DNA from: Alphaproteobacteria bacterium
GTDB lineage: Bacteria; Pseudomonadota; Alphaproteobacteria; Bin95
Length of the DNA stretch: 64,000 nucleotides
Assembly: GCA_963665325.3 (NCBI GenBank)
Contig: CAXXWS020000003.1
Coordinates: 832,001-896,000 of the forward strand
Direction: 5' to 3'
Part shown: piece by piece, positions 29,201 to 64,000 of the stretch
Numbering within the stretch: position 1 is the stretch's first letter
Layout of the letters: each line of letters begins with the position of its first letter
Program-made: the position numbers and the translations under genes
Notes under the pieces: model-generated
Database searches by the model: none
Told to the model about the DNA's origin: nothing
Seen by the model: the letters and a program-made list of their open reading frames with translations, nothing else

Positions 29201-29974
29201 TGGGTTGGGCAAATGAAGGAGACCCGTAACGAGGTACTGGCGGAAATCGTGCGCGCGTCCGGGCGGGATGCGCCGACGCTCCGACGTCGGTCTCTACGCA
29301 CGCTGAACGACCTGAAGCAAGCCTTCGTCGGGGTCTATCTCGATCTCCACGCCAGGGCGCGGCTCGGAGTGAACGACGACAGGAGGAAAACCGCGCTGAT
29401 GCGCGACGGGCGGCTGGCGCGAATCCAGGCGCTCTCGGCCATCGACCTCATGCCGGTCCGGCATCTGACGGACTTGCAGGAGCGCCTTGGCGCGCTGAAC
29501 AGTTGCTCCGCTCTTACCAAGGGGGAGATGGAAGTTGCTCCGGTCTGCCCGCACTGCGGGTTCAGGCCTGCCCTGGAGACAATCGCGGTCGTTGCCGGAA
29601 AGACTCTCGAGCACCTGGACGAGAAGATCGACAGGTTGCTCGCCGACTGGACGCGGACATTGCTCGCCAACCTGGACGATTCAGCGGTTCGCGAGAATCT
29701 GTCGCTGCTGGAGCCGGTGCAACGGAAGCGGGTCGACTCCTTTGTGAAGACAGGAGAACTCCCCGATCCACTGGAGCCCGAATTCATCGAGGCCCTCCGG
29801 GAGGTCCTGTCCGGTCTGGTCAAAGTTGTGGTGAAGACCGAGGACCTGAGGGCCGCGCTCCTCTCCGGCGGTTCCCCCGCGCGCCCCGACGAGATGAAGA
29901 GGCGTTTCGAGGGACACCTGGATGGCCTCACGAAGGGGCAGGAGTTGGCCAGAGTCCGGGTGGTGCTGGAGTAG
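26246..29974 (+). CDS. brxC: BREX type 3 ATPase BrxC (DUF6079 family)
   Basis: 1242 aa; [10 protein letters not shown] Walker [12 protein letters not shown] Walker B, C-terminal CPHC. Confidence 0.88.
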
Positions 29975-29980
29975 GCGTCG

Positions 29981-34964: not shown

Positions 34965-34981
34965 ACGGGCCTTGCCGGAAA

Positions 34982-48008: not shown

Positions 48009-49049
48009 ATGGATGTCTATATCGGGCTGGATGTATCGCTGGCAAGCACGGCGATCTGTGTTCTTGGCGAGAAAGGAACGATCATCACGGAGGCGCAGGT
48101 CGCCAGCGCCCCCGACACGCTGGTGTGCTTCATGCGCAAGCTGCCGTTCGGGATCGCCGCGATCGGTCTCGAGGCCGGTCCCCTGTCACACTGGTTGCAC
48201 AAGGGACTGTCGGATGCCGGCTTCGAGACCGTGCTGATGGAGACCCGACGGGTGAAGGCGGCGCTGAAGGCGATGCCGATCAAGACGGACCGCCGGGATG
48301 CCGAGGGTATCGCACGGCTTTTGCAGTTGGGCTGGTTCCGGCCGGTGCACTGCAAGTCGATATCGGCGCAGGAGATGCGGGCGCTGCTGACTTCGCGCAA
48401 GGCGGTGCTGAACGCGCTCAAGAATCTGGAGCTCTCACTGCGCGGCGTGTTGCGCAACTTCGGCTTGAAACTGGGCGTGGTCTCGAAGGGCCGCTACGAA
48501 GCCCGTATCAGGGAATTGACTGACGGCAATGAGATGCTGGAGGCTGCGGCCGAACCGATGCTGCGCGCGCGGACGGCTCTGCGGCGCGAACTGGCCGGCC
48601 TGGAGAAGAGGGTCCGCGATCTGGCTTGGCAAGACCGGACATGCCGTTTGCTGATGACCATGCCTGGCGTCGGTCACGTCATTGCTCTGACCTTCACCTC
48701 CGCGATCGACGATCCTGAGCGGTTCCGGAGATCGAAGGATATAGGTCCTTGGGTGGGGTTGACGCCGGGACGGGATCAATCCGGCGAACGGGATATTGTC
48801 GGCAGAATCACGAAGGCCGGAGATGCAGGTCTACGCACGGCGCTCTACCAGGCCGCGACGGTGATGTTGAATCGCGCGAGGCCAAACTGGCTGAAAGCCT
48901 GGGCACTACGGGTGGCGAGGTTCCGCGGCAAGAAGCGCGCAACAGTTGCTCTGGCCCGGCGCATCGGCATCGTGCTTCACCGGATGTGGCGGGACGGCAC
49001 CGAGTTCCGCTTCACGCGCAAGGAAGCAATGGAGCTTCGAGCGGCATAG
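48009..49049 (+). CDS. IS110-family DEDD recombinase
   Basis: YIGLDVS, GLEAG, KTDRRDA, MPGVG, GLTP..QSG (catalytic Ser), ARR. Confidence 0.93.
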   Translation: MDVYIGLDVSLASTAICVLGEKGTIITEAQVASAPDTLVCFMRKLPFGIAAIGLEAGPLSHWLHKGLSDAGFETVLMETRRVKAALKAMPIKTDRRDAEGIARLLQLGWFRPVHCKSISAQEMRALLTSRKAVLNALKNLELSLRGVLRNFGLKLGVVSKGRYEARIRELTDGNEMLEAAAEPMLRARTALRRELAGLEKRVRDLAWQDRTCRLLMTMPGVGHVIALTFTSAIDDPERFRRSKDIGPWVGLTPGRDQSGERDIVGRITKAGDAGLRTALYQAATVMLNRARPNWLKAWALRVARFRGKKRATVALARRIGIVLHRMWRDGTEFRFTRKEAMELRAA

Positions 49050-49476
49050 GCGTGGCTGCTTGACACCGACAGTCTGCATCCAGAGGAGAAAAGAACCGCG
49101 CCCGTAGGCGGAAGGTCACCGGTGTCCCCTCGCCGGGACGCGGTTCCCGATGATGCACGTAGTTAGCCTCGTCTGCCGCATCGTCTCATCGCGGTCGAGC
49201 ACGCAAGTCAGATTGGCACTCGGGAACCGTACTGGACCAGGCATGAAGTTGGCGGCCGCCGCGCCGACCACGGACGGAAGCGAGAGCCTGGCGACGGACA
49301 CATCCGGGATCGTAAGCCCTTCCCAGGCGCCCAATCCTGAACCGGAAACATGGCGGGCTCATGTTGTCGACACTCCGGGACCACGGCTGAGCCCATGCCC
49401 CCTGCACGTAGTGAAGGCTCGCGAAAGGGATCCTGTCGCGACGATGGGTCGTGGGAAAATGGCGCTTGACGACAAC
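49050..49476 (+). ncRNA. Candidate bridge/seek RNA region of the IS1111-type element
   Basis: About 430-bp region between recombinase stop and right IR, where IS1111 elements encode their guide RNA; RNA boundaries not determined. Confidence 0.6.
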
Positions 49477-49523
49477 CGCCCCATTACGGAAGTCGCTATT
49501 TTGCTCGGGCGGTCGAAGTTTAT

Positions 49524-49910
49524 GTGGATCATACGCAAGATGCGGCGATATCCTATGCCAAGATGGGGAGGGTCGTTTTGTTCGGTTTTGTCGCGATGGA
49601 GTACCCACGTCGCTGGAAGGGTACGAAGTTGCACGTTCGACATGGACAATTTGGTCAACATGACATAGAGTTGCCGTCTGACGTTGGAGAATTCATCTTT
49701 GGACGTGCCCGATTGGCTGCGAAAAGTTACTCGCAGATTTCAGAACGACAACATGCAAGAATCCGGGAATCTTATGATCAGAATCTTGGTCGTGCATCTC
49801 AGAGTGAAACTCTCCGCGCCATGCATCACGATGTATCGATGTTTGGCAGGAATGCCTTTGAGGCTACGCAATCAGGCATTGATAGTCGCGCGGAGAAGGG
49901 GACACAGTAG
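49524..49910 (+). CDS. Hypothetical protein
   Basis: 128-aa lower-GC ORF without recognisable motif. Confidence 0.35.
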   Translation: MDHTQDAAISYAKMGRVVLFGFVAMEYPRRWKGTKLHVRHGQFGQHDIELPSDVGEFIFGRARLAAKSYSQISERQHARIRESYDQNLGRASQSETLRAMHHDVSMFGRNAFEATQSGIDSRAEKGTQ

Positions 49911-50066
49911 GTCGGCCGAGGAGCATTCGTAACACGCTGTAGAAACACCGATGATCTCAATGGCTGCCCGAAACCGGCCACAATCTTCGAACGGCACGAT
50001 CACCGGAATTAACGACCGATAACATGCACCGATCCGCTCCGGGTGTGTCCCACCGCCCGATGGAGA

Positions 50067-51221
50067 CTACCCCACCATCTCGGCGATCCGGCTGGCAATA
50101 CGGTTGGCGGCGGACTTGACCGGGTCGTTGGCAAGATGGGCGTAGCGCGCCGTTGTCTGCACTTGCGTGTGGCCGAGCAGCTTCCCGATCATCGGAAGCC
50201 CTTCGCCGACCAGCAGTCCTCCACTGGCAAAGCTGTGTCGAAGGTCATGAATTCGCACATCGTCGAGCCCGGCCCGAGCCCGGATGCGCCGCCAGGGGTG
50301 TTGCAGGTCCGTCAGATGGCTGTCGGGCTTGCGCCCGGCGATCACCCACGGATTCCCCTCCTTCCGGTTGATTCCGCGCAGCACCGCGACGGCCGGATCG
50401 CCAAGATGCACCGTCTTGGCCCCCGACTTGCTGTCGGGTAGCCGCAATTCGCCCGCCTCCAGGTCGATATGCTCCCATCGCACCTTCTGGACCTCCGAGA
50501 GCCGGCAGCCCGTCAGCATCAGCAGCCGGATCGCCGCGATGGCGGCAGGCGTCTCCGAGCCGTCCCGGCCGATTTCCTTCAGGGTTTCTCCAAGGCGCCG
50601 GTACTCCTCGTCCGACAGGAACCGCTCCCGCTTCTCCTCGCGAAACCGCTTCACATGGCGGCACGGGTTCGATCCGTCCGGGCGCAGGCCCCAGACTTCG
50701 GCCATGTTGAACATCTTCGAGAGCACCCCGAGCGTCCGGTTGGCCTGGTAGGGGGTTTCCCGCATGCCGTGATGCAGCGCCGCAATGTCCTTGCGCTGAA
50801 TGTCGGGAACGCGGAGCTGGCCGATCCTGGGATCTATGAACAGTGTCACCGATCGGCGGTATTCCGCCGCCGTGCTCGGCTTGCAATGCGACGGCACATA
50901 TTCTTCCAGGAACCGCGTGCCCAGTTCCCGCATGGTCGGCGCGTTGGCATTGGCCCCGCCGCGCGCCGCCGGGTCCTTGCCCGCCCGTGCATCGGACATG
51001 ATCTCCGCCGCCCGGGTGCGCGCGTCGGCCGGCGTGACCGCGCCGTGGGGTCCGATAGTGACCTTGATCGCCCGTCCGCGGAAGCGCGTCTTGACGATAT
51101 AGACCTTGCGGCCGGAGGGATGGATGCGGATGCCGAAGCCCTTGAGATCGTCATCCCAGACAACGCGCTCGCGCTCCTGGGGATCGAGCGCGTCGACGGT
51201 TCTCTTGGTGATTTTGGCCAT
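50067..51221 (-). CDS. int: Tyrosine recombinase/integrase with arm-binding N-terminal domain
   Basis: VWDDDLKGFGIR arm domain; LTGCRLSE, HDLRHSFAS, LLGH..TTARYAH catalytic motifs. Confidence 0.93.
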   Translation of the reverse strand: MAKITKRTVDALDPQERERVVWDDDLKGFGIRIHPSGRKVYIVKTRFRGRAIKVTIGPHGAVTPADARTRAAEIMSDARAGKDPAARGGANANAPTMRELGTRFLEEYVPSHCKPSTAAEYRRSVTLFIDPRIGQLRVPDIQRKDIAALHHGMRETPYQANRTLGVLSKMFNMAEVWGLRPDGSNPCRHVKRFREEKRERFLSDEEYRRLGETLKEIGRDGSETPAAIAAIRLLMLTGCRLSEVQKVRWEHIDLEAGELRLPDSKSGAKTVHLGDPAVAVLRGINRKEGNPWVIAGRKPDSHLTDLQHPWRRIRARAGLDDVRIHDLRHSFASGGLLVGEGLPMIGKLLGHTQVQTTARYAHLANDPVKSAANRIASRIAEMVG

Positions 51222-51349
51222 GGCGCAATCCTCTCTTGCAATTCCCGATCAGGCACCATATAGGTACTCAGAGAACGCAAATCAAGGCGCAGGATGGCGT
51301 AAGGGAGCGCAGAAATGGTACCAATAATCCTATGTTTCATAGCTACTTA

Positions 51350-51368
51350 GCGCAATTCAGCGCAATTC
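51350..51368 (+). repeat. GCGCAATTC direct repeat, candidate integrase arm-type sites
   Basis: Copies at 51350-51358 and 51360-51368 between int start and att core. Confidence 0.5.
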
Positions 51369-51389
51369 TGTCTTAGTATTCCTATCAAA

Positions 51390-51434
51390 CTCATAACCTG
51401 AAGGTCGTAGGTTCAAATCCTACCCCCGCTACCA
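51390..51434 (+). other. att site: 3' half of tRNA-fMet (anticodon loop to CCA), not a complete tRNA
   Basis: CTCATAACCTGAAGGTCGTAGGTTCAAATCCTACCCCCGCTACCA; no D-arm or acceptor 5' half upstream. Confidence 0.92.
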
Positions 51435-53079
51435 CCGAGACCGACATTCCGCCTCGCGGGGTGTCGGTTCCGGTCCCTTTCCTTCCCGTCCCGCTCCCGG
51501 CCCATTCGAGGATGGTGCCGAGGTCGCCATGCAGCGCGGCGTGCAGCTCGCCGCGCTTCTCGCCGGGGGTGAGCACGATGCGCTCGATCAGCCCCCTTAT
51601 GGCCTCCGCCGCCTCGTCGCGATCGCGCGGGTCGGCTAGCGCCTCGGCGAGCCGCTCCACCTTGCGCCGGTAGATGTCCGCGATCTTCGGGTGGATGTCG
51701 GGCATGTCGGCCGGGACGGTGGATAGCCGCTCCTCGATCTCGTCCTGGCGGGCCTCAAGCTCGCGCATGCGGTCCATCATGCCCCGCGCATAGCCGCCGT
51801 CCTCGATCACCGCGACCATGGCCTTGATCTTCTTCTCTATGTCCGCAAACTCCCTGCGGTCCGTCGCGCCCGATGCGCGGCGCTCGCGGTTGAGGCGGTT
51901 GGTCTCCTCGGCATACGCCTTCATCGCCTCGGCGGCGGCCTCGGGCGCCATCAGCTTCTCCCTGAGCCCCGCCATGACCCGCTCCTCGATCTCGACGCGC
52001 CGGATGCCCCTGCCGTTGGCGCAAGAACCCGTCATGACGTGGTTGGAGCAGCCGTAGCGGTCCTGGCCGCGCTTGGCGTAGGAACCGCCGCACACGCCGC
52101 ATTCGAGCAGGCCCGACAGCAGGTAGCGGGGCCGGTGGGTGCTGTTGAGCCGGTTGGCATGGGCCGCGCGCGTCGCCGCGATGACGGTGGCGTATTTCTC
52201 GGAGATTTCCCCCTGCCGGGCCTTCGCCGCCTGCCACAGCGCGTCGTCCACGATACGAAGCTCGGGAACCTCGGCGATGATCCATTCCTCCGGCGGGTTG
52301 AGCCGCGCGACCCGCTTGCCGGTGTCCGGGTTCTTCATGAAGCGCTGCCGGTTCCACACCAGCCGGCCGATATAGAGCTCGTTGTTGAGAAGCCCGGTTC
52401 CCCGCTTGGCATGACCGCGCAGGACGGAATCGCTCCACAGCTTCCCCTTGGGGCCGGGGATGCCGTCCTCGTTGAGACGCCGCGCGATCGCGCGCGGGCT
52501 GGTCCCCTGGGCGAACTCCCGGAAGATGCGCCGCACGATCTCCGCCTCGGCCTCGTCGATGCTGCGCTCGCCCCGGACCGGCTCGCCGGCGGCGTCGTGC
52601 AGCTTCACCACGTCGTAGCCGTAGCAGATGCCGCCGCCCGACTTGCCGGCCTCGACCCGGCCGCGAAGGCCCCGGTGTGTCTTGGCCGCGAGGTCCTTCA
52701 GGAACAGCGCGTTCATGGTGCCCTTGAGGCCGACGTGAAGCTCGTTGATCTCGCCTTCCGAGAGCGTGACGATCATCACCCCCGCGAACCGCAGATGCTT
52801 GTAGAGCACCGCCACGTCGGCCTGGTCGCGGCTCACCCTGTCGAGCGCCTCCGCGACCACGATCTCGAACGCACCCCGGCGCGCGTCCTCAAGCAGTGCC
52901 TGGACGCCGGGGCGCAGGATCACGCTCGCGCCCGAGACGGCGGAGTCCTTGTAGGTTCCCGTGAGCTTCCAGCCTTCGCGTTCGGCAAGCTCGCGGCAGA
53001 TACGGAACTGGTCCTCGATGGAGGCCGCCCGCTGCTGGTCGGACGAGTAACGGGCGTAGAGCGCGCAGCGCAGGGTCAT
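51391..53079 (-). CDS. Large serine recombinase (resolvase + recombinase + Zn ribbon)
   Basis: CALYARYSS catalytic Ser, LDRVSRD, YGYD, LLSGLLECGVCG, YGC..C; C-terminus VAGVGFEPTTFRL read antisense through the tRNA fragment. Confidence 0.93.
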   Translation of the reverse strand: MTLRCALYARYSSDQQRAASIEDQFRICRELAEREGWKLTGTYKDSAVSGASVILRPGVQALLEDARRGAFEIVVAEALDRVSRDQADVAVLYKHLRFAGVMIVTLSEGEINELHVGLKGTMNALFLKDLAAKTHRGLRGRVEAGKSGGGICYGYDVVKLHDAAGEPVRGERSIDEAEAEIVRRIFREFAQGTSPRAIARRLNEDGIPGPKGKLWSDSVLRGHAKRGTGLLNNELYIGRLVWNRQRFMKNPDTGKRVARLNPPEEWIIAEVPELRIVDDALWQAAKARQGEISEKYATVIAATRAAHANRLNSTHRPRYLLSGLLECGVCGGSYAKRGQDRYGCSNHVMTGSCANGRGIRRVEIEERVMAGLREKLMAPEAAAEAMKAYAEETNRLNRERRASGATDRREFADIEKKIKAMVAVIEDGGYARGMMDRMRELEARQDEIEERLSTVPADMPDIHPKIADIYRRKVERLAEALADPRDRDEAAEAIRGLIERIVLTPGEKRGELHAALHGDLGTILEWAGSGTGRKGTGTDTPRGGMSVSVVAGVGFEPTTFRL

Positions 53080-53092
53080 GGTCTCGGGTCTC

Positions 53093-53293
53093 CTATCGGT
53101 CGTGCGCCTCCTTCTCCGGCGCATTGTCGTTGGCGGCTTCCGGCCGGGCGAATTGCTCGCGCGCGATCTGGCGCCCGAGCAGCCGGGCGAGGCGCATCAC
53201 CGCGTCCTCGATCCGCGCTTCCGGCCCGCCGTTGTCGTTGGCGGCCGGGCCGTGCACTGGCGCCCGCTCTCGGCCGTTCCCGTCTCTTCGCAT
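53093..53293 (-). CDS. Small protein upstream of LSR, candidate recombination directionality factor
   Basis: GGAGG RBS; 66 aa with AANDN twice flanking a helix LARLLGRQIAREQF. Confidence 0.55.
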   Translation of the reverse strand: MRRDGNGRERAPVHGPAANDNGGPEARIEDAVMRLARLLGRQIAREQFARPEAANDNAPEKEAHDR

Positions 53294-53465
53294 CGCCTCC
53301 GCCTTCCCGGATACCATGACCCTGGAAGGGAGATTTGAACCTGCGGGCAAGCCTTGTCAAACGGCGCATTGGGGGATTTCCTGCATGGAATCAATGCCTT
53401 GTCCGCACAAGGCACGCCCTGGCACGCTGTGGCCGCGCGTGGCTACGATGAAAAAAATTTCGCAC

Positions 53466-53894
53466 TCATCGCGTTTCCGCGTAATCGGCCAGCGTCAGGA
53501 TGGACTCGCCGTGCTCGGTCAGCGTCACGGAATTCGCGAATCGACGGTCTGCCGTCAGCATGACCGCGCCGATGCGATGGGCGAGCGCGAGATACACGCA
53601 ATCGTAAATCGGACGGTCGAGCGCCAGCGCCAGACGCACGGCGTCGGCGGAGACCAGTTCATCGGCGCCCCAGCGCACCGGCATATCCGGCACGTCCGCC
53701 AAGAGGATGCCCGCAGCGCGGCGCTCTATCTCGCCCGTCCGGGCTTTGCGCCAGATTGCATTGGCGACCTCGGACGCCATCAGGCGCGGCGCGTGAAGGT
53801 CGTGGCCGCTCGTCGCCAGTTCCTCCGCAACATCCGTTTCTTCCTCGGCGACCAGCCACTTGACCGCCACGCTCGCATCGACCACGAAGCGCAT
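53466..53894 (-). CDS. vapC: PIN-domain toxin (VapC/FitB)
   Basis: VVDASVAVKW, SEVANA, IYDCVYLALA, LTADRR. Confidence 0.92.
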   Translation of the reverse strand: MRFVVDASVAVKWLVAEEETDVAEELATSGHDLHAPRLMASEVANAIWRKARTGEIERRAAGILLADVPDMPVRWGADELVSADAVRLALALDRPIYDCVYLALAHRIGAVMLTADRRFANSVTLTEHGESILTLADYAETR

Positions 53895-54154
53895 CAGAAG
53901 TCGTCGCGATGGCCGTGGTCGCGGTCCTCGCGGATCAGCACTTCCGCCGGGGTCTGCTTGCGTCCTTCGGTCAGGGGACGCAGCCGCTTCATGGTTTCCC
54001 GGAACGCGGCGCGCTTCGCCGCCATGTCGTCGTCGGCCGCGCATTGCAGGATGTGGCGCGCTTCGCCCTCCAGGGAGCGGTTGTTCTGCGCTGCACGCTG
54101 CTTGAGGCGGTCCACCACGTCATCGTCGAGCCGCCGCACATTGATCGTCACCAT
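53894..54154 (-). CDS. FitA-like ribbon-helix-helix antitoxin
   Basis: INVRRLDD..LKQRAAQNNRSLEGEARHIL..LIREDRD; overlaps toxin start. Confidence 0.9.
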   Translation of the reverse strand: MVTINVRRLDDDVVDRLKQRAAQNNRSLEGEARHILQCAADDDMAAKRAAFRETMKRLRPLTEGRKQTPAEVLIREDRDHGHRDDF

Positions 54155-54371
54155 GGGTTCGCCTCCAACCGTCGGTTATCAAACTGTTATCAGGTTGTCG
54201 CGGGACATGCAAGCCCCGGCGGGTAGGACACTGGGCGACATTTGCGGCCACGGGCGGACAGCGGCGGACGCAGGTATGTTCGTCCCTTGTTCTGCGCTGT
54301 CGGAGCGCATATCTGGCAGGGATGGATCGGCAGGAATCCGCTCATTTCGAGTCCATCGCGAGGCTGCCGCG

Positions 54372-57300
54372 ATGGTAGCGTCCATCGGCAAGATCGCTTC
54401 GCCGTCGCAGGGCGTGGGCTATTTCGAGAAGGACGGCTACTACGCCAGGGACGACGGGGCGCACCGCGAGGCCAGCGCCTGGGCCGGTAAGGGCGCGGCG
54501 GCGCTGGGCCTCTCTGGGCCGGTCGATCCCGAGCGCTTCCGGTCGGTGCTCGAAGGCGAGGTTCCGGGCGGCCGCCGTCTCGGGCGCAGGGAGATCGACG
54601 GCGCCATCGCGCACCGGCCCGGCCGCGACGTGACCCTGAGCGCGCCCAAGTCGGTCTCGCTGATGGCGATGGTGGGCGGCGACGAGCGCATCGTCGAGGC
54701 GCACGACAAGGCGGTGACGGCGACGCTGGGCTGGATCGAGGCGAACGCCGTCGAGACCCGGATGCGCGACCCCGCGACCGGGGCGATGGTCCGCGCCGGA
54801 GGCCAGAAGACGGTCGCGGCAACCTTCCGCCATGACACTTCCAGGAACCTGGATCCCCAGCTCCACACGCATGCCGTCGTCGCCAACATGGTCCAGGGCG
54901 AGGACGGCAAGTGGCGGACGATGGTCGATGACGGCCTGTTCAAGGGCAAGATGGCCATCGGGGCGATCTACCGGGCGGAACTGGCGCAGGGGCTGAAGGG
55001 GCTCGGCTACGGCATCGAGAAGACCCATGCCGACGGGCGGTTCGAGATCGAGGGCGTCCCGCGCGAAGTCATCGACGCCTATTCCACGCGCCGCGCCGAG
55101 ATCGAGGCGGCGATGGCCGAGCGCGGCATGGGGGAGTCGAAGGACAATCCCCATCTGGCGGCGCGGGCGGCGCTGATGACGCGGGCGGCCAAGCGGGACA
55201 TCGACCGGGACGAGCTCGGCCGCTCATGGCAGCGCCAGGCGAAGGGGCTCGGGTTCTCCGCAAGCAAGGTCCGCGCCCAGGCCCGCAAGGCGGAGCGGGG
55301 CCTGCTCGGCCCGGACCTGTTCGCGGGTCCAGGCTATGCGGCGGGCGACGCGGCGGCCTGGGCGGTGGCGCACCTTGCCGAACGCCAGTCGGTGTTCGGC
55401 CATGCCGACCTGCTGGCGGCGACGCTCGCCCGCGAGCCGGGCGCGGTCACCGTCGATGCGGCGGAGCGCGCCATCGGGACCCTCGAACGCGACGGATCGC
55501 TCCACGCCGCGCGCGGCCTCGACCATGGCCGGCACTGGACGACGGACGCGGCGATGGCGCGGGAATCCGAGACCATCGCGCTGATGCGCGCGGGCCAGGG
55601 GGCGGAGAAGACCGTCATGCGACGCTGGGTGGCGGAGACGAAGCTGCACCGGGGCCGGCTCAACGAGGGCCAGAAAGAGGCGGTCAAGACGATCCTCGCC
55701 AGCACGGATCGCGTCGTCGCGGTCCAGGGCTATGCCGGCACGGGCAAGACGACGATGCTGAAGCGCCTGCGGGCGCTGGCCGCCAGCCAGGGCTACCGCA
55801 CAATCGGGCTCGCGCCCTCGGCCTCGGCGGCGAAGACGCTTCAGAATGAATCCGGCATTCAATCCGAGACCCTGCAACGCTACCTCGCGCGCCATGACGG
55901 GATTGCCCACGGGCGCGGCACGGCGGCGGGGTTGCGCAAGCTCCGCGCCGCCAACGCGAAGACGATGCTGGTGGTGGACGAGTCCTCGCTCGCCTCAAGC
56001 GAGCAAATGAAGAATCTCCTGCGCATTGCGACGACGCTGCGCCTGCCCCGCGTGGTGCTGGTCGGCGACGAGAAGCAGCTCGGCGCGGTCGAGGCCGGGA
56101 AGCCGTTTGAGCAACTGAAGGCCGCCGGGATGACCACGACGGTGATGGACGACATCGTTCGCCAGCGCGACGCCGAGCTGAAGGCGGCGGTCCGGGCGAG
56201 CCTGACCGGCGACGTGAAGACCGCGTTCAAGAAGCTCGGCGACAACATCCGGCAGGTCGAGTACGGCGATCTCGGCACCGAGACCGCGCGGCACTGGCTG
56301 AACCTGCCGCATGAACAGCGCGCGGCGACGGGGGTGATCGCCCCGACGCGGGCGCTGCGCGACGAAATCAACGCCACGATCCGGGAAGAGCTGATCGCCG
56401 AAGGCGCGATCTCCGGCCCCGCCCGGCAGGGCGAGAAGCTGGTGCCGCGCGACCTCACCCGCGCACAGATGGCCCGCGCGTCCAACTACACCATCGGCGA
56501 TACGGTGATATTCACCCGCCCCTACAAGACGCTCGGGGTGGACAAGGGCGACGAGCGGCGGGTCGCCGGCATCGATCGGCGCTGGGGCGTGCTGCGGCTT
56601 GAGGACGCGAAGGGCGACAGGACGCCGTGGCGGCCGGAACGCATCGCCGCCGCCAAGGGCGGGGTCGAGGTCTATCGCGGCGAGGCGATGGAGCTTCGCC
56701 GGGGCGACCGGGTGCGCTTCACGCGCAACGATCCCGCCTCCGGGCTCACCAACGGCGAGACCGCGACGGTGGAAGCCGTCGGCCGGGACGGGGTTCGCTT
56801 CCGTCTGGAAAACGGTTCGCTGGCCACGCTCCGGCAGCACGACCCGCAGCTCCGGCATATCGACCGCGCCTTCGCGGCGACGGTGCATGCGTTCCAGGGG
56901 CGCACGGTGGACCGGATCGTCGCGGCGATGCCCGTCGGCAACCCGAAGCTGACCGACCAGCGCGCCTTCTATGTCGCGATCTCGCGGGCGCGCGATGCCG
57001 CCCGGCTCGTCACGGACGATGCCCACAAGCTCGCCGACCAGCTCGAACGGGCGACCGGCGAGCGTCTCGCGGCGCTCGATGCGACGGCGAAACAGGCCGC
57101 CTGGGAGACCGTGTTCGGGCGGGACCGCGCCGATGAGCGGGGCGGCGATCATCTGACACGCGCTTCTGACGCGATGGATCGCGGGGCGGAAGTCGCCCGC
57201 GACGGGCAGGACGGGCATGGGCGCGAGCGGCAATTGGGTCGCGGAACGGGCCGCGAAGTCCGCCGCGCGCGCGAGCGCGACCATCGAATCGCGCGCGAAA

Positions 57301-57491
57301 CCGGCCGGGACCGCGACGGAAAATCGCCCGCGCGCTCCACGGATCGCGAGCGAAGCGGGAAGGAATCGGCCGGCAAGGCCCCCGGCATCGACCGTGGCGG
57401 CGATGGCCGGCAGGCTGTTCCCGGCGAATCCGAACTCGAAAAGGCCGCCGGCGCGAAGCAGAAATCGCGCGACTTCGACCTCGGCATGTAG
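54372..57491 (+). CDS. MOBF relaxase-helicase (TrwC/TraI-like)
   Basis: YFEKDGYY, SAPKSVS, HDTSRNLDPQLHTH; helicase VQGYAGTGKT, VVDES, TVHAFQGRT, FYVAISRAR. Confidence 0.93.
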   Translation: MVASIGKIASPSQGVGYFEKDGYYARDDGAHREASAWAGKGAAALGLSGPVDPERFRSVLEGEVPGGRRLGRREIDGAIAHRPGRDVTLSAPKSVSLMAMVGGDERIVEAHDKAVTATLGWIEANAVETRMRDPATGAMVRAGGQKTVAATFRHDTSRNLDPQLHTHAVVANMVQGEDGKWRTMVDDGLFKGKMAIGAIYRAELAQGLKGLGYGIEKTHADGRFEIEGVPREVIDAYSTRRAEIEAAMAERGMGESKDNPHLAARAALMTRAAKRDIDRDELGRSWQRQAKGLGFSASKVRAQARKAERGLLGPDLFAGPGYAAGDAAAWAVAHLAERQSVFGHADLLAATLAREPGAVTVDAAERAIGTLERDGSLHAARGLDHGRHWTTDAAMARESETIALMRAGQGAEKTVMRRWVAETKLHRGRLNEGQKEAVKTILASTDRVVAVQGYAGTGKTTMLKRLRALAASQGYRTIGLAPSASAAKTLQNESGIQSETLQRYLARHDGIAHGRGTAAGLRKLRAANAKTMLVVDESSLASSEQMKNLLRIATTLRLPRVVLVGDEKQLGAVEAGKPFEQLKAAGMTTTVMDDIVRQRDAELKAAVRASLTGDVKTAFKKLGDNIRQVEYGDLGTETARHWLNLPHEQRAATGVIAPTRALRDEINATIREELIAEGAISGPARQGEKLVPRDLTRAQMARASNYTIGDTVIFTRPYKTLGVDKGDERRVAGIDRRWGVLRLEDAKGDRTPWRPERIAAAKGGVEVYRGEAMELRRGDRVRFTRNDPASGLTNGETATVEAVGRDGVRFRLENGSLATLRQHDPQLRHIDRAFAATVHAFQGRTVDRIVAAMPVGNPKLTDQRAFYVAISRARDAARLVTDDAHKLADQLERATGERLAALDATAKQAAWETVFGRDRADERGGDHLTRASDAMDRGAEVARDGQDGHGRERQLGRGTGREVRRARERDHRIARETGRDRDGKSPARSTDRERSGKESAGKAPGIDRGGDGRQAVPGESELEKAAGAKQKSRDFDLGM

Positions 57492-57938
57492 CTGCCCCTC
57501 CCTCTTTCCGGCCAAATCAGCGCCCTGCGCAAAGGAAAAATCCGTCGCAGCGCGCGCCCATCATGGTCGCCGATTTGCCCGAAACCGGACAGCGGATGCC
57601 AGGAGCGGCCGCGCGGCGACGGGGCCGCGCTCCCCTGTCCTGGGGCGGCCAGCGAGCGCCTCGGCGGTCTTGGGAAAGTCTGTATGCTCCGGGCGCTACG
57701 GCGTGGATTGCTCCAGCACGCCGCCGGGGCCGTCGCGCGCCCAGGGTTCTCCGGAGAATTGCCCCGCTCGACCCTAAGCCCTTGAAATACTGCGATGTGT
57801 TTGAAGCGTGTTGCGACGCAATGCGCCCTGGCACAAATCGGGGCTCGCGCTTTTCCAAGGGGGTTTTCGGAGCATACATGGGGCCACAGGGGGACAGGGC
57901 GTAGCCCATCGTGGCCAAGCGTAGCCGGAACAGGACAG

Positions 57939-57964
57939 GCATCACCGATGCGGCAGGTGTGAGA
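57939..57964 (+). other. Candidate MOBF oriT/nic site
   Basis: GCATC-ACC-GATGC hairpin followed by GGCAGGTGT; resembles R388/R46/F nic architecture. Confidence 0.5.
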
Positions 57965-58217
57965 ACCTTAACGGGCGCCAGCCCGTCCATGCGGACTCGG
58001 CGTCCAGCCGCTATGTCGGGGAAGCTCGCAAGGGCGTTTTCCATGGTCAAGCCGCCGCGGCGCATGAGGGGTGCGGACCCACGTCATGAACGCATCGCGC
58101 GCCGGACAGGGCCTGCGCACGCTTACCGGCGGCGTCAATCGTGCCAGGCGGCACGGCACGGTCGATGACGGCGGCGCTGTCGATGTCGGCAGCCCCGACC
58201 GGGTCCGGCGTAAGTCA

Positions 58218-58256
58218 AGAACAGATGTCGAGAACGAATGTCGAGAACGAATTGAC
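58218..58256 (+). repeat. Three imperfect 13-bp tandem repeats
   Basis: AGAACAGATGTCG / AGAACGAATGTCG / AGAACGAATTGAC. Confidence 0.8.
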
Positions 58257-58286
58257 GCCTCACCCCGGGCAGTGCTTCAATACTCG

Positions 58287-58441
58287 TTGCAAACCTTCAG
58301 GCAGTCCCGCTGAGTCGGGTCTCCTGCTGAATAGAACAGCCTGATACGCGACGTGGGGTAGCTCCCTGCGTTTGGCGAATAGGCAGGGTCTCTCAATCTG
58401 TCTGAGGGTTTGCAAAGGCCCGGCACCAGTCCCGTGCCGGG
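58287..58441 (+). ncRNA. Candidate structured leader RNA
   Basis: 18-bp helix 58287-58304 / 58398-58415 whose only non-Watson-Crick pairs are G-U; nested stems; downstream hairpin 58419-58441. Confidence 0.4.
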
Positions 58442-58468
58442 ATGCAATGCCAACCACGGGAGCGACAA

Positions 58469-59518
58469 ATGACATACTCGGATAGAGGATTGGCGCGAAC
58501 GGCGACTCTGGCCGTTGTCACCGCATTCGCTTTGCTCACCCTAGCTGCCTGTGGCGGCGGCGGTGGAGGTGGAGGCAGAGGCAGCCCCACCTCGATGATG
58601 CCACCCGGCGGTGGTGGCGGGGGGCAGATGACGGACGGCGGCACATCATCTGGCAGCAATGCGACCTACACCGTGAGCGCGGACAGCAGCACTTTCGGTT
58701 CGACCCCGGTCACGGTATCGCCCGACGCCATCACTATTGCGAATCAGACGATCAGGTTCAACTCTGCGTCGCAGGTAGGAGCCCAAGTCGGAATTTACCG
58801 CGCTTTTGATTCGCCGGGGACAACTAGTGGGCCGGCGACGGAGGTTCACTACTTCGGGCAGCACGATGGATACAGTTATATTCAGTTCGGCTCTTGGGCC
58901 AAGGGAGTCGTCAGTCCCAACCCAGGGTTCAGAATCGGAGACGACTTTGGTGCTTTTGTTGCTCCCTACGCAGACTCGGGATTGACCCCCGTCTCGAATT
59001 TGCCCGCAACTGGAACTGCTACTTGGCTAGGTCAATATACCGGCTATGTCGACAGGCAAGGGGTTGGAGTCTCGCACGTGGTCGGAAGAGCAGCAATGGT
59101 GGCGAATTTTGGCCACTCAGTATTCGGCGTTGACGACGGCAGCATGGCGGTTGAGCTCTTGCCACCCGATCCGCGTCGCTCATCCTTTGCCGCACCGCCA
59201 CCAGATCTTTGTGTATTCACTTGTGTTCCCACGGAGTACGGTGATCGCGTGTTGATGATTGGCCCAATCGACGGGAATACGTTTGAGAGCGATGTCACCG
59301 CCACACGCACCCTCGCGGGACAAACATTCCCGCGAGGCGATGCCATCTCAGTGGCCAACACGCAGTCGTTCAGCAGTCTATATTCACACGGCGGCGCAAA
59401 CAGCGGAGGATTCAACGGCGGATTCTACGGAAATCGAGGCGGTGAGGCTGGCGGAACCTATCAATTCACGATTGGAACTACGAAGGCCGCAGGCTCATTC
59501 GGCGGTAAACTTCAGTGA
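58469..59518 (+). CDS. Surface lipoprotein with TbpB/HpuA-like C-terminal beta-barrel
   Basis: Lipobox LAAC, poly-Gly linker, LPATGTATWLG, GGFYG..GEAGGTY..GSFGGK. Confidence 0.75.
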   Translation: MTYSDRGLARTATLAVVTAFALLTLAACGGGGGGGGRGSPTSMMPPGGGGGGQMTDGGTSSGSNATYTVSADSSTFGSTPVTVSPDAITIANQTIRFNSASQVGAQVGIYRAFDSPGTTSGPATEVHYFGQHDGYSYIQFGSWAKGVVSPNPGFRIGDDFGAFVAPYADSGLTPVSNLPATGTATWLGQYTGYVDRQGVGVSHVVGRAAMVANFGHSVFGVDDGSMAVELLPPDPRRSSFAAPPPDLCVFTCVPTEYGDRVLMIGPIDGNTFESDVTATRTLAGQTFPRGDAISVANTQSFSSLYSHGGANSGGFNGGFYGNRGGEAGGTYQFTIGTTKAAGSFGGKLQ

Positions 59519-59707
59519 GCGGATGTGGCGAGAAATAGTGAGACGCTACATGCTACGGCGCGGTGTTCACGCGAGGTAGTATGAATCTATGAATCGGGGA
59601 TTGGTTCCCGAGAGTGCTGTCGGGGTGCCGCCTAACCGACATCCCGTTCAGCACCGCGCAGTTTGGCAGCACGGGACTACAGACAAATGGGTAATCCTAG
59701 ATTTTCA

Positions 59708-60034
59708 CTAACCGCGTTTGCGCGCGTCGTCGGCATCCCAGCGGCTGCGCCCCAGAAGCGCCTGCATACGCCACGGGCGCGACAGACCCGCCTGCTCCGC
59801 CATCATCCAGCCCGTCTTTCGCTCGATCCCCGACAGAAGACCGTCCAGAAACGCGCTCCCCGTCTCTCGAAGCTCACGGCGCCCAAACAAGGGACCCAGA
59901 CGCGACTTCCACAAACCCAACTCCCGCTCCCACTCCAGAAGCGAGCCCGACCAATCCGCTACACTCATCGTGCCTTCTCTCCGCTTTCACTTCGCGGAGT
60001 GAGTCACAAATTGCAACAAACCACAACTGTAGTA
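59708..60034 (-). pseudogene. Truncated IS701-family element (transposase N-terminus 59708-59968 and left end)
   Basis: LFGRRELRE..FLDGLLSGIERKTGWMMAEQAG..MQALLGRSRWDAD; end abuts CTAG at 60035-60038. Confidence 0.75.
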
Positions 60035-60049
60035 CTAGGGAGATCCCCT

Positions 60050-61822
60050 ATGCACGTTTGCCGACCGGCCGCGCTTTCCGCGTGCCTACTGCTGCTTCTC
60101 ACCGCCTGCGGAGGCGGAGGTGGTGCTGGGGGTTCGGCAGTTGGACCGGGGCCGGTTGAACCGTTGGCAGGTGTTTCTTTGCGCTTGCCCTCGGGCCACG
60201 GCCTGATGGCAGGCTCGGTCTCGGTCGCGCCGGGCGGCTCGGCCGAGCACGGCAACGTGGTCGTTTCGTGCCCGGCGAGCGGACAGGCGTGCGTGGTGAC
60301 CGTCGCGGCGGACGGCACGGCGAGTTACGACCGGACGGGCGGCATGCCCGGCGTCATGGCGGCGTATGGAGCATGGGCGCTGCCACCCGGCCACGGGCTT
60401 TCGGCGGGTGCGCTCCGGGTCGCGCCGGGCGGCTCGGCCGAGCACGGCAACGTGGTCGTTTCGTGCCCGGCGAGCGGACAGGCGTGCGTGGTGACCGTCG
60501 CGGCGGACGGCACGGCAAGCTACGACCGCACCGGCGGTGTCATGGTGGCGGAACCAGTGCTGCGTGAGCCGTTCGACACGGTCTCCGTGAGACTTGCCAA
60601 AGAGACGGGCAACCCGACATCGGCGGAGCTCTTGTCCTATTTGAGTACGCAGCTCGGTGGCGGTCCGTGGTACGCCGGTTCGCAATACATGTGGTCGGAT
60701 ATTCCCGGTTTGGGTCGGTATTCTTCGCCCCCAATGGTGCGTATTGTACAAGGAGCCTCTGCCCACGAACGCGCGATGGCCCACCACGCCGTCGCACTTA
60801 TCAACCGGGAACTTCCCAACCAGTGGCACATTCAAATTGGGAGTGACGCGCCGACGCTGGGAGCAGTCTCGGCTGTCCCTGACGGAGAATTATACGTCGG
60901 TTTCTTGGCCGTCGCCGAATATGAACTCAGTGGCGGAGGAAGACCGGAGTCTGAAGGATTAGCCTTTCCTGACCGTGTGTCCGAATGGGATGAACGACAG
61001 CAGCGCCATGAAGTTAAGGGGATGCGGGCTGCTCAGGTTTGGATGCGACCGGAAACTTGGTTTCGGTCCAATCAACGTTCAGAAGGCAACATGATGTGGG
61101 TACTGGTGCATGAATTGATTCATGCACTGGGATTAGACGGCCATGTTCCTGAAGGCGAGCACCCGGGCTCAATTATGAACGACTGCTGCCAACAATCGAG
61201 TATTGAGCGCATACCTGAGATTGACGGCACCGCCTTGCGCGCTATCTACACCCGCTACGAGAACGGCACGGGGTCGGAAGACCTGTCGCCGGAAAGTCTC
61301 GGGCCGTGGGAGACCAGCTCTCTTAATCTGTCAGGCGAGCTTGACACCCCCGGCGGCACGGTCTCATTTGGCGTGAAGCACCGTAACGGTATCAGCGTTC
61401 CTTGGACGAGTGGGCAGGAGCCGAGCTCCGCGTTGGCAGACAACCGTTCAATTACGGGAACGGCGACTTGGAGCGGCGGACTTCTGGGTTTCACGCCCCA
61501 CCAACTATCAGTGGGCGGTAATGCGGAGATCAATGTGAACATGGGCACGATGAACGGAAGTGCCGACTTTACTGACCTCCAGCGATGGCCTGCCGGGCAG
61601 GCGCCGGGCGCGCTGGGAACTGGTTCTCAGTGGGGTGAAGGAAGCCTTGGCTACACAATCTCCGTCAGCGGCAATTTCCTTCGGAGCACTGGCGGCGACG
61701 CCGGAGTGGTTGCTGGAAACTTCTACGGGAGCGGTCATGAAGGCGTTGCAGGCTCGCTGGAGCGCAGCGACCTAACGGCGGTTTTCGGCGCGAAGCATCA
61801 GTCGACATCCGACGCTCTGTAA
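60050..61822 (+). CDS. Lipoprotein: duplicated Cys-pair module + HExxH zinc peptidase + TbpB-like barrel
   Basis: Lipobox LTAC; repeat LPxGHGL..SCPASGQACVVTV twice; VHELIHALGLDGH..SIM metzincin-like motif; GTATWSG..GNFYG..EGVAG..AVFGAK. Confidence 0.78.
   Translation: MHVCRPAALSACLLLLLTACGGGGGAGGSAVGPGPVEPLAGVSLRLPSGHGLMAGSVSVAPGGSAEHGNVVVSCPASGQACVVTVAADGTASYDRTGGMPGVMAAYGAWALPPGHGLSAGALRVAPGGSAEHGNVVVSCPASGQACVVTVAADGTASYDRTGGVMVAEPVLREPFDTVSVRLAKETGNPTSAELLSYLSTQLGGGPWYAGSQYMWSDIPGLGRYSSPPMVRIVQGASAHERAMAHHAVALINRELPNQWHIQIGSDAPTLGAVSAVPDGELYVGFLAVAEYELSGGGRPESEGLAFPDRVSEWDERQQRHEVKGMRAAQVWMRPETWFRSNQRSEGNMMWVLVHELIHALGLDGHVPEGEHPGSIMNDCCQQSSIERIPEIDGTALRAIYTRYENGTGSEDLSPESLGPWETSSLNLSGELDTPGGTVSFGVKHRNGISVPWTSGQEPSSALADNRSITGTATWSGGLLGFTPHQLSVGGNAEINVNMGTMNGSADFTDLQRWPAGQAPGALGTGSQWGEGSLGYTISVSGNFLRSTGGDAGVVAGNFYGSGHEGVAGSLERSDLTAVFGAKHQSTSDAL
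60223..60516 (+). repeat. Identical 99-bp intragenic duplication
   Basis: 60223-60321 = 60418-60516, offset 195 bp (65 codons). Confidence 0.9.
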
Positions 61823-62070
61823 CTCTGATGGTATTCGTCAATCCATCCTCGTCGGGGTTCGGCGGATCTTCGTCGTGGACGACGCCTGCAACGGCTTACA
61901 TGACCGGGCAGAATCAATCGAATTCCAAGGCGAACTGGTATACACGACCTACCACGCGTGTTGTGGCCCCCAAGGAAGGCGGATGGCTACCGTAAGCTGC
62001 TGCGAGGGTGTGGCACAAACGCGTTATACTGCGCCCTTGTGTGCAGAACTCAGACATTGACAACAAGTAA

Positions 62071-62105
62071 GTGTCGGTTTCGGCTGTAGCGAGCCCCCGC
62101 AACCA
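62071..62105 (+). other. Right att site of the LSR element, including displaced tRNA 3' end CCCCCGCAACCA
   Basis: tRNA-fMet-type 3' terminus at 62094-62105, preceded by an arm that is the inverted repeat of 51428-51447. Confidence 0.82.
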
Positions 62106-62146
62106 AAAGAAGCCCCTGAAAACATTGATGTTTTCAGGGGTTTTTC
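62106..62146 (+). terminator. Rho-independent terminator after tRNA 3' end
   Basis: Stem CCCCTGAAAACA-TTGA-TGTTTTCAGGGG (62113-62140) followed by a T-run; A-rich upstream. Confidence 0.8.
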
Positions 62147-62199
62147 ATTTTCGGACAAGCACATTTGGCAGTTTGGCAAACTATTGGCAAACAACACTA

Positions 62200-62297
62200 G
62201 GTCGTGTACCCATAAGGTGTTTCATGATTTGCGAAGATGTGATTCAAGCTCCCAACCTCAGGGAGCTTGGAGATGGGCCGCTACGATCTGACGGACT
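62200..62297 (+). pseudogene. Left end of an IS5-family element interrupted by IS66
   Basis: End next to CTAG; GGAG RBS and ATG 62273 giving MGRYDLTD, typical of IS5 transposase starts, cut at 62298. Confidence 0.55.
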
Positions 62298-64000
62298 GTA
62301 AGCGGTTCGAACGCGGCACGTGGATTTCAGCTTGACGAGCTGACGAAGTTCCACGGGAGCAAGTCGTCGATCCGGTCGTTGGGATGGCCGGCCGCGATGG
62401 CTTCGAGGGTGGCCTTGAGCCAGGCGTAGGGCTCGACCCCGTTCAACTTGGCGGTCTGGGTGAGTGAAGCGATCCGGCCCCAGGCGACCGCGCCTTCGTC
62501 GTGACCCGCGAAGAGTGCGTTTTTCCTTGTAAGGGCAATCGGCCGGGCGAGATTCTCGACGGCATTGCTGTCCATCTCGACACGGCCGTCGGCAAGGAAG
62601 AGCCGGAGACCGTCCCAGTGGCGGGCGATATAGGCGAGCTTCTCGCCGAGCCGGGACTTGGGCGAGACGCGGGCGCGCTGCTGCTTCAGCCAGTCGCCGA
62701 AGGCCTCGACCAGCGGCGCGGCGCGCGTTTGTCGTTCGCTCAGACGCCGTTCGGGCGGGCTACCGCGGATGTCCGCCTCGATGGCGTAGAGTTCGGCGAT
62801 GCGGCGCAGGCCCTCGGCCGCGATCTCGGAGCCGCTGCTGTCGTAGATTTCGCGGAGCCGGCGCCTGGCATGGCTCCAGCAATATGCCAGCCGCAGCGGC
62901 GCGCCGCCCTTGCGGCCCCGGCCGGTCAGCCGGTTGTATCCGGCATAGCCGTCGACCTGCAGGATGCCGTCGAAGCCGTCGAGGAACTTTTCAGCATATT
63001 CGCCGCCGCGCCCGGGGGCATAGAAGTACACCACGCCCGGCGGATCGGGTCCGCCCCAGGCGCGGTCATCGCGGGCCAGCGCCCATAGCCAGCCGGTCTT
63101 CGTCCTGCCGCGGCCCGGATCGAGCACCGGCGCGCGGGTCTCGTCCATGAAGAGTTTGGAAGAGCGTTTCAGGTGCCAGGCCAACCGGTCGGCCACTGGC
63201 TTCAGATGGAACGAGGCCCTGCCGACCCAGCCGGCCAGCGTCGAGCGGTCCAGATCGAGCCCCGAGCGGGCGTAGATCTGCACCTGCCGATGCAGCGGGC
63301 AATGATCCAGGTATTTCGAGACGAGCACATGGGTGATCGTGCCTTCGGTCGGCAGCGCGCCCTCGATCGGCCAAGCTGGCGCCGGCGCCTGGGTGACGCC
63401 TTGCTCGCAAGCCCGGCAGGCGTATTTCGGCCGCACCGTGACGATCACCCGAAGCTGCGCCGGCACGATGTCCAGGCGCTCGCTCCGATCCTCGCCGATC
63501 TGCACCATCTCCCCGCAGCCGCAGGGACAGAGCGTGCTCTCCGGCTCGATCACCTGCTCGACCCGCTCCAGATGCTCCGGCAGATGGCCGATATTGCGCT
63601 CGGCACGAGGCCGCTTCGACGAGCGCGGCGACGACGGATCGCCAGCCGCAGCCTCCGCTTCCACCTCCGCAGACGCCCCCTCAAGGTCCTCGAAAGCCAG
63701 TTGGCGCTCGTCCGCCGTCAACCTCTCCGACCTCTTGCCATACAGAAGGCGGATCAGTTCCAGGTTCAGGTGTTCGAGACGGCGGATACGCTCCGCCTGC
63801 GTCCCGTTGCGGTCTGTCAGAACCTCGTTCTCGCCTGCAAGGCAGGCCTTCTCTTCCGCCAGCGTCTCGTTCTCGGCGCGAAGCGTCTCCAGCGCCGCGA
63901 TCGCCTGCACCGCGGCGTTACGCTGTTCGGGCGTCAGCGTTCCGAGGTCGATCTCCGCAAGGGCCGGCATGGCCAGTCTGGTAGCACAGTGTCGGGATAC
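62298..64000 (-). mobile_element. Second IS66-family element (runs off window)
   Basis: Terminal GTAAGC at 62298; tnpC on minus strand. Confidence 0.85.
62327..63970 (-). CDS. tnpC: IS66 transposase TnpC
   Basis: YGKRSER, HLPEHLER, LFMDET, CWSHARR, DSNAVENLARP, DLLPWN. Confidence 0.92.
   Translation of the reverse strand: MPALAEIDLGTLTPEQRNAAVQAIAALETLRAENETLAEEKACLAGENEVLTDRNGTQAERIRRLEHLNLELIRLLYGKRSERLTADERQLAFEDLEGASAEVEAEAAAGDPSSPRSSKRPRAERNIGHLPEHLERVEQVIEPESTLCPCGCGEMVQIGEDRSERLDIVPAQLRVIVTVRPKYACRACEQGVTQAPAPAWPIEGALPTEGTITHVLVSKYLDHCPLHRQVQIYARSGLDLDRSTLAGWVGRASFHLKPVADRLAWHLKRSSKLFMDETRAPVLDPGRGRTKTGWLWALARDDRAWGGPDPPGVVYFYAPGRGGEYAEKFLDGFDGILQVDGYAGYNRLTGRGRKGGAPLRLAYCWSHARRRLREIYDSSGSEIAAEGLRRIAELYAIEADIRGSPPERRLSERQTRAAPLVEAFGDWLKQQRARVSPKSRLGEKLAYIARHWDGLRLFLADGRVEMDSNAVENLARPIALTRKNALFAGHDEGAVAWGRIASLTQTAKLNGVEPYAWLKATLEAIAAGHPNDRIDDLLPWNFVSSSS

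Follow-up and report, generated by a model that had tools for sequence, protein, structure and literature searches.

The window analyzed here, a stretch of 64,000 nucleotides from an alphaproteobacterial genome (positions 832001-896000 of contig C4), carries near its right end an element of about 10.7 kb (51423-62105) that abuts a 114-kb integrative and conjugative element (ICE), and this locus raises the question of whether so small an element depends on this particular neighbor or on conjugative elements in general. An earlier note on this DNA had favored the first answer: the element, an integrative and mobilizable element (IME), would hijack the TraD coupling protein and the type IV secretion system (T4SS) of the adjacent ICE by means of a look-alike relaxase, and would stay co-located with it by targeting the same tRNA at a different sub-site. 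Our analysis leads to another answer, namely a canonical IME for which any F-type ICE of the genome could probably serve as helper in trans, and which was likely placed here by tandem accretion.

In the excerpt of PMC5704250 (like all papers cited here, used in part), canonical relaxase-encoding IMEs carry their own integrase, origin of transfer (oriT) and relaxase, lack a coupling protein and a T4SS, are often integrated in tandem with ICEs and, for members of low specificity, are present in 2-6 copies. The present element shares this set of modules, the tandem placement and the multiple copies. Its core features are the following:

51391..53079, minus strand: large serine integrase, 562 aa, with Pfam Resolvase, Recombinase and Zn-ribbon domains
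54372..57491, plus strand: MOBF relaxase-helicase, 1039 aa (PF08751, E 6e-85; NF041492 above cut-off)
57939..57962, plus strand: predicted oriT core, a short hairpin then a MOBF-type nick sequence, with the predicted nick at 57960/57961
51423..51446, plus strand: IME attL attachment site, CCC core with a predicted CC crossover at 51423-51424, plus the element-side arm, which recurs at the junctions of related copies
62072..62105, plus strand: IME attR attachment site, conserved element-side arm, CCC core (62094-62096), then the original tRNA 3' end

All the genes named in the earlier note are present with open frames (serine integrase, 66-aa open reading frame (ORF), the FitAB/VapBC pair of a PIN toxin and a FitA-like antitoxin, MOBF relaxase-helicase and two lipobox proteins), and Pfam and tblastn support its description of the element, including the lack of coupling protein and T4SS. 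Searches of 51423-62105 by tblastn with the TraD of the neighbor and eight tra proteins, and by domain scan, gave zero matches to TraD or T4SS genes, and the same tblastn found no tra remnants. The candidate oriT, previously mentioned without a position, is now placed by sequence at 57939-57962. The ends are given by a copy from a congener of another species (G011), alignable over 51423-62099, and agree with contigs of public runs, which diverge from the sequence at 51423 and after 62100/62101; the predicted excised circle measures 10,671 bp. As in a canonical IME, an integrase with att-bounded ends, a relaxase with its catalytic motifs (Y17/Y23/Y24, HxH at 165 and Walker A at 453) and a predicted oriT in cis are thus found together with no coupling or mating-pair genes.

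The relaxase had been read as a paralog of the enzyme of the adjacent ICE from the likeness of their N-termini. Both N-termini are found in the sequence, but the six other ICE relaxases encoded in this genome show the same resemblance. Identity to the IME relaxase is 53.3-59.9% for the seven ICE enzymes and 39-45% for the orphan MOBF relaxases of the genome, and the relaxase of the neighboring ICE is 69-74% identical to those of the other ICEs. A satellite of the neighbor, i.e., an IME that imitates the adjacent ICE, relies on it and uses the same tRNA as target in order to remain beside it, would be in keeping with the fact that the neighbor encodes nominally the closest ICE relaxase (59.9%, a second one having an equal bit score) and that its F-type gene set is complete (TraL, E, K, B, V, C, peptidase, W, U, TrbC, N, F, H, G, D and relaxase, between the intact tRNA and the displaced tRNA fragment described below). 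However, the phylogeny proposed as a check of this claim separates the two enzymes. In an 84-row FastTree (67 of 77 loci, 10 truncated or frameshifted ones being omitted, with 12 relaxases of this genome and five congener copies), the IME relaxase belongs to a 32-row clade without any traD match in the flanks covered, whose labels are Pseudomonadota, Binatota/Thermodesulfobacteriota and Acidobacteriota, and the sister clade (47 rows) includes all 29 traD-adjacent rows plus 18 without traD. A 14-row IQ-TREE is concordant, and the approximately unbiased (AU) test rejects the IME and neighbor relaxases as one clade (p-AU 6.5e-61). As judged from the relaxase sequences, the likeness is one of old common descent with the F-type ICE family and not that of a copy of the neighbor. 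Among plasmid records, nothing reached 60% identity, the best listed matches being at 36-40%. Outside Alphaproteobacteria, the relaxases of the clade are near tyrosine integrases or no detected integrase; since these partners differ, the transfer module pairs with different integration modules.

Plasmid R388, whose TrwC gives a structure match to the IME relaxase, encodes its own TrwB and T4SS. Its nic site, as excerpted from PMC4176350, is a hairpin followed by the nick sequence, in which T18 is conserved and important; because the IME core has the same layout, we place the predicted nick at 57960/61. G17, G22, T23, T25 and a purine at position 26 of R388 are kept in the IME, and position 18 is G in the IME instead of the T of the ICE sites. 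The motif was found 3' of the relaxase gene in 20 of 26 loci of the clade and in 12 of 41 loci of the sister clade. At R388 position 18, 15 of these 20 clade sites have G (the five others have T), versus T in all 12 sister-clade sites and in the seven ICE sites of this genome; given this G, the origin of the IME may be private to its own relaxase.

About 600 bp past the relaxase stop codon are conserved in all eight aligned copies, one of which has no relaxase. A profile built from IME copies alone has, as its top five non-self matches, sites downstream of ICE relaxases, each of them weak (E 0.05-0.8). The IME and ICE sites align on the hairpin followed by TGCG-N4-GTGT, a motif present downstream of all seven F-type ICE relaxases, and the 23-nt core at up to four mismatches occurs eight times in 5.58 Mb: once as itself, at six ICE sites and once next to tandem integrases. 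The oriT of the neighboring ICE (C4:817769) is the least IME-like of the seven and falls outside this set, which is the reverse of what would be expected of a satellite of this neighbor. The polarity of the predicted oriT would make the cargo leading and the relaxase gene last, and the oriTs of the IME and of its neighbor point apart. Around the eight orphan relaxases, which are more distant, no nick motif of this kind was seen. The 217-bp segment preceding the relaxase gene was also considered as oriT and rejected in favor of the downstream motif, as it has no ICE match. Two other loci carry related sequences. At C1:1789419, a nick-like hairpin lies by a tandem pair of tyrosine integrases, without a MOBF gene in the vicinity, and is a candidate oriT-only island. 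In G011, locus L054 (C2, about 27.7-37.5 kb) shares its integrase, att arms and oriT region with the IME (91-93% identical) and has no relaxase; it is a candidate oriT-only passenger of the IME relaxase.

The position of the IME beside the ICE involves two further features:

50067..51221, minus strand: tyrosine integrase (PF00589, PF13356, PF22022) at the right end of the neighboring 114-kb ICE, outside the IME, adjoining the displaced tRNA fragment
51390..51434, plus strand: displaced 3' fragment of tRNA-Met(CAT), 45 bp, 44/45 nt matching tRNA positions 33-77; it is the ICE attR and holds the IME attL

The earlier note has to be corrected in that ARAGORN found no intact tRNA in the window; Rfam over 49000-64000 gave two chance matches only. 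The intact tRNA-Met(CAT) gene is located 114 kb away (C4:769382-769458), after tRNA-Ile and tRNA-Ala, and we take it to be of the initiator type (fMet) from its unpaired first base and its position in an rRNA (rrn) operon. The presence of fMet genes within rrn operons is noted in the excerpt of PMC11476347. The final 12 nt of this tRNA gene are found at two places only in the genome, the intact gene and 62094-62105. The use of the same tRNA at a different sub-site is confirmed, the crossover being in the anticodon loop of tRNA-fMet for the ICE and in the acceptor end of the displaced fragment for the IME; it is because of this acceptor-end crossover that the IME lies outside the ICE ends. The attL and attR arms of the IME make a dyad centered on the CC pair. 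At position 51430, the insertion of the IME swaps A to T in the acceptor end of the tRNA fragment, so that after excision of the ICE the rebuilt tRNA would carry this change, its first pair staying unpaired.

The integrase retains Ser12 and four Zn cysteines that are invariant in 20 of 20 rows. Its frame crosses attL, the last 10 residues and the stop codon coming from the target site, and the tails differ accordingly (VGFEPTTFRL here, EGFEPPTQGL at a second tRNA-Met, others elsewhere); in the excised form, the protein is predicted to have 566 aa with a different 14-residue tail. Directly upstream lies a short gene:

53093..53293, minus strand: 66-aa ORF with a conserved core in 24/24 aligned rows

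It has no Pfam or NCBIfam family, and Atlas gave only weak matches to unnamed clusters; from its position, it is a candidate directionality factor. In another genome, locus L052 (G033:C9) has an integrase 62% identical to this one and the same small upstream ORF at the head of an element with trb-like conjugation genes (recognized by eye). Since such an integrase is paired there with trb-like genes, this integration module is common to ICEs and IMEs.

A census of the attL arm (40 metagenome, 27 genus and 2 genome loci), which tallies the integrase family and therefore includes elements without this relaxase, yielded 59 distinct sites, of which 22 are displaced fMet fragments, 9 are fMet genes that are intact, 5 are tRNA-Met genes presumably of the elongator type, 12 are non-tRNA sites, 10 are mirror or junction-like sites and one is too short. 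Copies at non-tRNA sites have just a CCC core in common. The integrase prefers the acceptor end of tRNA-Met(CAT) genes or displaced fragments, accepts other sites and needs no ICE-made site. The congener G011 illustrates this range, with five copies carrying both integrase and relaxase, whose integrases are 91-94% identical to this one and which occupy two tRNA types, two genes and one further site. Two of the five are beside or within an ICE: one is at a displaced fragment beside it and a second lies in what by eye is an IS66 transposase gene, within the span of that same ICE (108 kb). The three others (second tRNA-Met, a protein-coding gene that we presume to be cbb3 oxidase-like, and one further site) are 0.63, 1.7 and 1.8 Mb from the nearest traC of their contig. 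With copies far from ICEs and such varied target sites, the claim that co-location is a targeting strategy is not supported; the place of the IME beside the ICE likely reflects tandem accretion, the tRNA being a hot spot common to both.

Alternatively, the IME could spread mainly in cis, since ICE integration duplicates the target of its integrase and a copy landing in the intact tRNA or in the ICE would travel as ICE cargo. The G011 copy located inside an ICE span would fit this proposal, as would an element of another genome (G008) that has this integrase at the intact tRNA within an ICE span and the intact tRNA of the present genome, which is still an empty IME site. However, the copy studied here is outside the ICE ends, and the joint retention of relaxase and oriT in the 20 clade loci mentioned above would be needless for a passive passenger; we consider spread in cis to be quite improbable.

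The resident conjugative elements were then compared with the distribution of the IME lineage. Six F-type tra-traD-relaxase regions of the genome are complete and a seventh is split by a transposon, with seven TraC in all, and about eight orphan MOBF genes of greater distance are present besides. PF03135 (VirB4/TrbE) had zero matches in the genome, which leaves the F type as the sole mating-pair system detected. Among 21 genomes bearing the relaxase clade, for which completeness is not given, 12 have an F-type TraC and nine have none, and 14 have a full-length TraD-type protein; VirB4/TrbE was absent from the four chromosome-titled records examined among them. Within the genus, co-occurrence is non-discriminating, 12 of 16 congeners having F-type TraC irrespective of the IME. 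The proposed co-occurrence with F-type ICEs is therefore seen in 12 genomes and not in nine, which partly contradicts it, although helpers can be lost later; co-location of IME and ICE is common and not required. As for the hijack of TraD and T4SS, its general part is retained (no coupling protein or T4SS in the IME, a clade sister to F-type ICEs, an akin oriT and only F-type systems detected), and what is not supported is the adjacent ICE as the particular helper.

Several points weigh against mobilization by any resident F-type ICE, and some of them favor a satellite of the neighbor. Displaced fragments are the commonest site of the att-arm census and outnumber intact fMet genes (22 versus 9 of 59), indicating ICE adjacency above what chance might give, and the ICE-fragment-IME layout recurs in G011 and at L068. 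The genome also encodes two VirD4-type coupling proteins, and TraD is thus not the sole candidate. On long contigs, 5 of 22 clade relaxases are within 120 kb of traD or traC, by a hand count which assumes that contig numbers follow the record order. Lack of traD in the clade means no tblastn match to one query, with short flanks in 8 of the 32 rows, and the relaxase trees are quick or FastTree builds without bootstrap. Shuffled controls of the hairpin scan gave 0, 0 and 1 versus 9, for a scan designed from the matches and hence partly circular. Finally, the circle junction of the excised IME is absent among the listed joints of public contigs, which drop rare forms. One public run does include an empty-site-like joint, from 51435 to 62109, at 90% likeness, which may derive from another organism.

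Despite the recurrence of this layout, a satellite of the neighbor seems very improbable to us. The integrases of the recurring neighbor ICEs differ (62%, 80% and 29% identical), three of the five G011 copies are distant from every traC of their contig, and one genome (G041) that lacks TraC and a full-length TraD carries the IME at a displaced fragment. Intact fMet sites may also be under-counted, as the gene ends an rRNA operon and such operons often break assemblies. A relaxase pairing with that of the neighbor, an oriT matching the neighbor best (six ICE sites do better) and copies always located beside an ICE would be expected of such a satellite, and none of them was found.

The least probable of the accounts considered is that of a decayed ICE remnant, or of an element now moving only within the genome by means of its integrase. 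Split ICEs, a frameshifted sibling with a relaxase stub of 111 aa and the five copies in a single congener would agree with it. Nevertheless, all the frames of the IME are intact, no tra remnants lie inside it, its traD-less clade spans Pseudomonadota, Binatota and Acidobacteriota labels and its cargo is near-identical between two species. The sibling itself is found in overlapping contig stretches (C5:369-372 kb and C2:184-187 kb) at a non-tRNA site, its frameshifted integrase gene being 89% identical in DNA.

The comparison with the G011 copy L042 bears on recent movement. The left half of the IME is 83-94% identical to it and the right (cargo) half 98-100%, with zero mismatches over 57890-59430. 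Since the cargo half is near-identical between species while the host flanks are 89% identical, this points to recent movement. Identity switches no more than about 70 bp from the predicted nick, and the att site forms the other end, a pattern that fits the swapping of a nick-to-att cassette through either site-specific or homologous recombination. Other copies bear different cargo.

For an IME mobilized in trans by any resident F-type ICE, the gene content, ends, att arms, oriT-like motif, relaxase lineage and spread of insertion sites lead us to infer the following cycle: (i) the serine integrase would recombine a dyad attP with a CCC core; (ii) excision, perhaps with the help of the 66-aa ORF, would give the 10,671-bp circle; (iii) the relaxase would nick at 57960/61, the cargo entering the recipient first and the relaxase gene last; (iv) the TraD-type coupling protein and F-type T4SS of a co-resident ICE would export the strand; and (v) FitAB would assist retention. 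In this reading, both the relaxase and the oriT have a common origin with those of the ICE family and are not imitations of the neighbor. A more far-reaching version, that of a cross-phylum orthogonal hitchhiker lineage, would combine a single split from F-type ICE relaxases, a changed nick-site base blocking mutual processing, nick-to-att cassettes of surface lipoproteins swapped between hosts and an integrase tail that is rewritten with every insertion and excision and serves as a directionality or stability switch; we regard it as conceivable and rather doubtful.

Several known systems resemble this IME in part. The serine-integrase IMEs described in the excerpt of PMC5704250 are from Firmicutes and are inserted inside genes, whereas the present one is MOBF and prefers tRNA ends. 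In Mesorhizobium, according to the part of PMC8627217 used, alphaproteobacterial MOBF IMEs such as IMEMlR88B use ICE att sites including tRNA-Met, one of them, downstream of an ICE, encodes an adhesin, and five IMEs and one ICE have serine integrases; from figure text, the six-element tRNA-Met (b) group of its supplement may be these six elements. Those IMEs have Ti-like traACD, with divergent traA/traC (flanking oriT on the Ti plasmid), and the ICEs resident with them are trb-type (PMC8627217). Compared by description and not by sequence, the present IME differs from them by having no accessory gene, an oriT about 450 bp 3' of the relaxase gene and F-type residents; FitAB, not traC/traD, is divergent from its relaxase gene, and the TraA_Ti model is far below cut-off. 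A serine recombinase integrated at the same alphaproteobacterial target, tRNA-Met(CAT), is reported for the Paracoccus phage vB_PamS_Pami6, which by its description is a prophage and not a mobilizable island (PMC6536676, excerpt). The excerpted Islander paper describes displaced tRNA fragments, distinct subsites, tandem arrays (125 of 3919 islands) and, in Mx8 and SSV, integrase genes overlapping attP; in that 2014 account, serine integrases were not known at tRNA genes, whereas one is found here at an acceptor end with a site-dependent tail (PMC4383910). As in the excerpt on multi-targeting large serine recombinases (PMC10083194), close orthologs are found at several unrelated targets with a short common core; by description, the present integrase is unlike them in having no DUF4368 match among those listed and a clear preferred target, the criterion for that class being more than three unrelated targets for a 90% cluster. 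Relaxase-only integrative elements are also said to outnumber ICEs in six pathogen species (10.64898/2026.01.13.699239, excerpt). No published account of this IME lineage was found in the mostly open-access literature; the class of IMEs is already known, and what is new here is the predicted hairpin-nick oriT.

This locus provides a precise and testable helper-passenger system in uncultured bacteria rich in ICEs. Its matched related relaxases and nick sites may help to understand how a passenger shares a coupling protein yet keeps its own origin, and it adds a serine integrase whose attP has been reconstructed and for which a preferred target (a tRNA end) and secondary sites are known. That no account based on this particular neighbor is needed lessens the surprise.

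The remaining genes of the IME are accessory or cargo:

53466..54154, minus strand: FitA-like antitoxin and PIN/VapC toxin (PF22513, PF01850), accessory
53466-53894, minus strand: PIN toxin of this pair
53894-54154, minus strand: FitA-like antitoxin of this pair
58469..59518, plus strand: cargo lipoprotein 1, C-terminal TbpB-like barrel (PF01298 just over cut-off; Slam-lipoprotein model under cut-off)
60050..61822, plus strand: cargo lipoprotein 2, with an internal 157-nt repeat, an HExxH motif and a barrel-like C-terminus (PF00413 under cut-off)

The FitAB pair is missing from several related copies and is carried by two of the five G011 copies. The GC content at third codon positions (GC3) of the lipoprotein 1 gene is 0.60 versus 0.89 for the relaxase gene. 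Upstream of lipoprotein 1, a non-coding stretch of about 140 bp (58296-58442) has no Rfam match and about eight look-alikes elsewhere in the genome; it is possibly a shared regulatory element.

The neighboring ICE also carries a DUF6079/methylase/PglZ (BREX-like) block and cas1/cas2-like genes, recognized by eye (26246-36988; C4:818-830 kb). Many tyrosine integrases of the genome occur as tandem pairs. Downstream of the window, C4:910492-927105 includes a 5538-aa repetitive ORF (probably an adhesin), followed by a transposon and a traD-relaxase half-ICE, the other half of which is apparently on C2.

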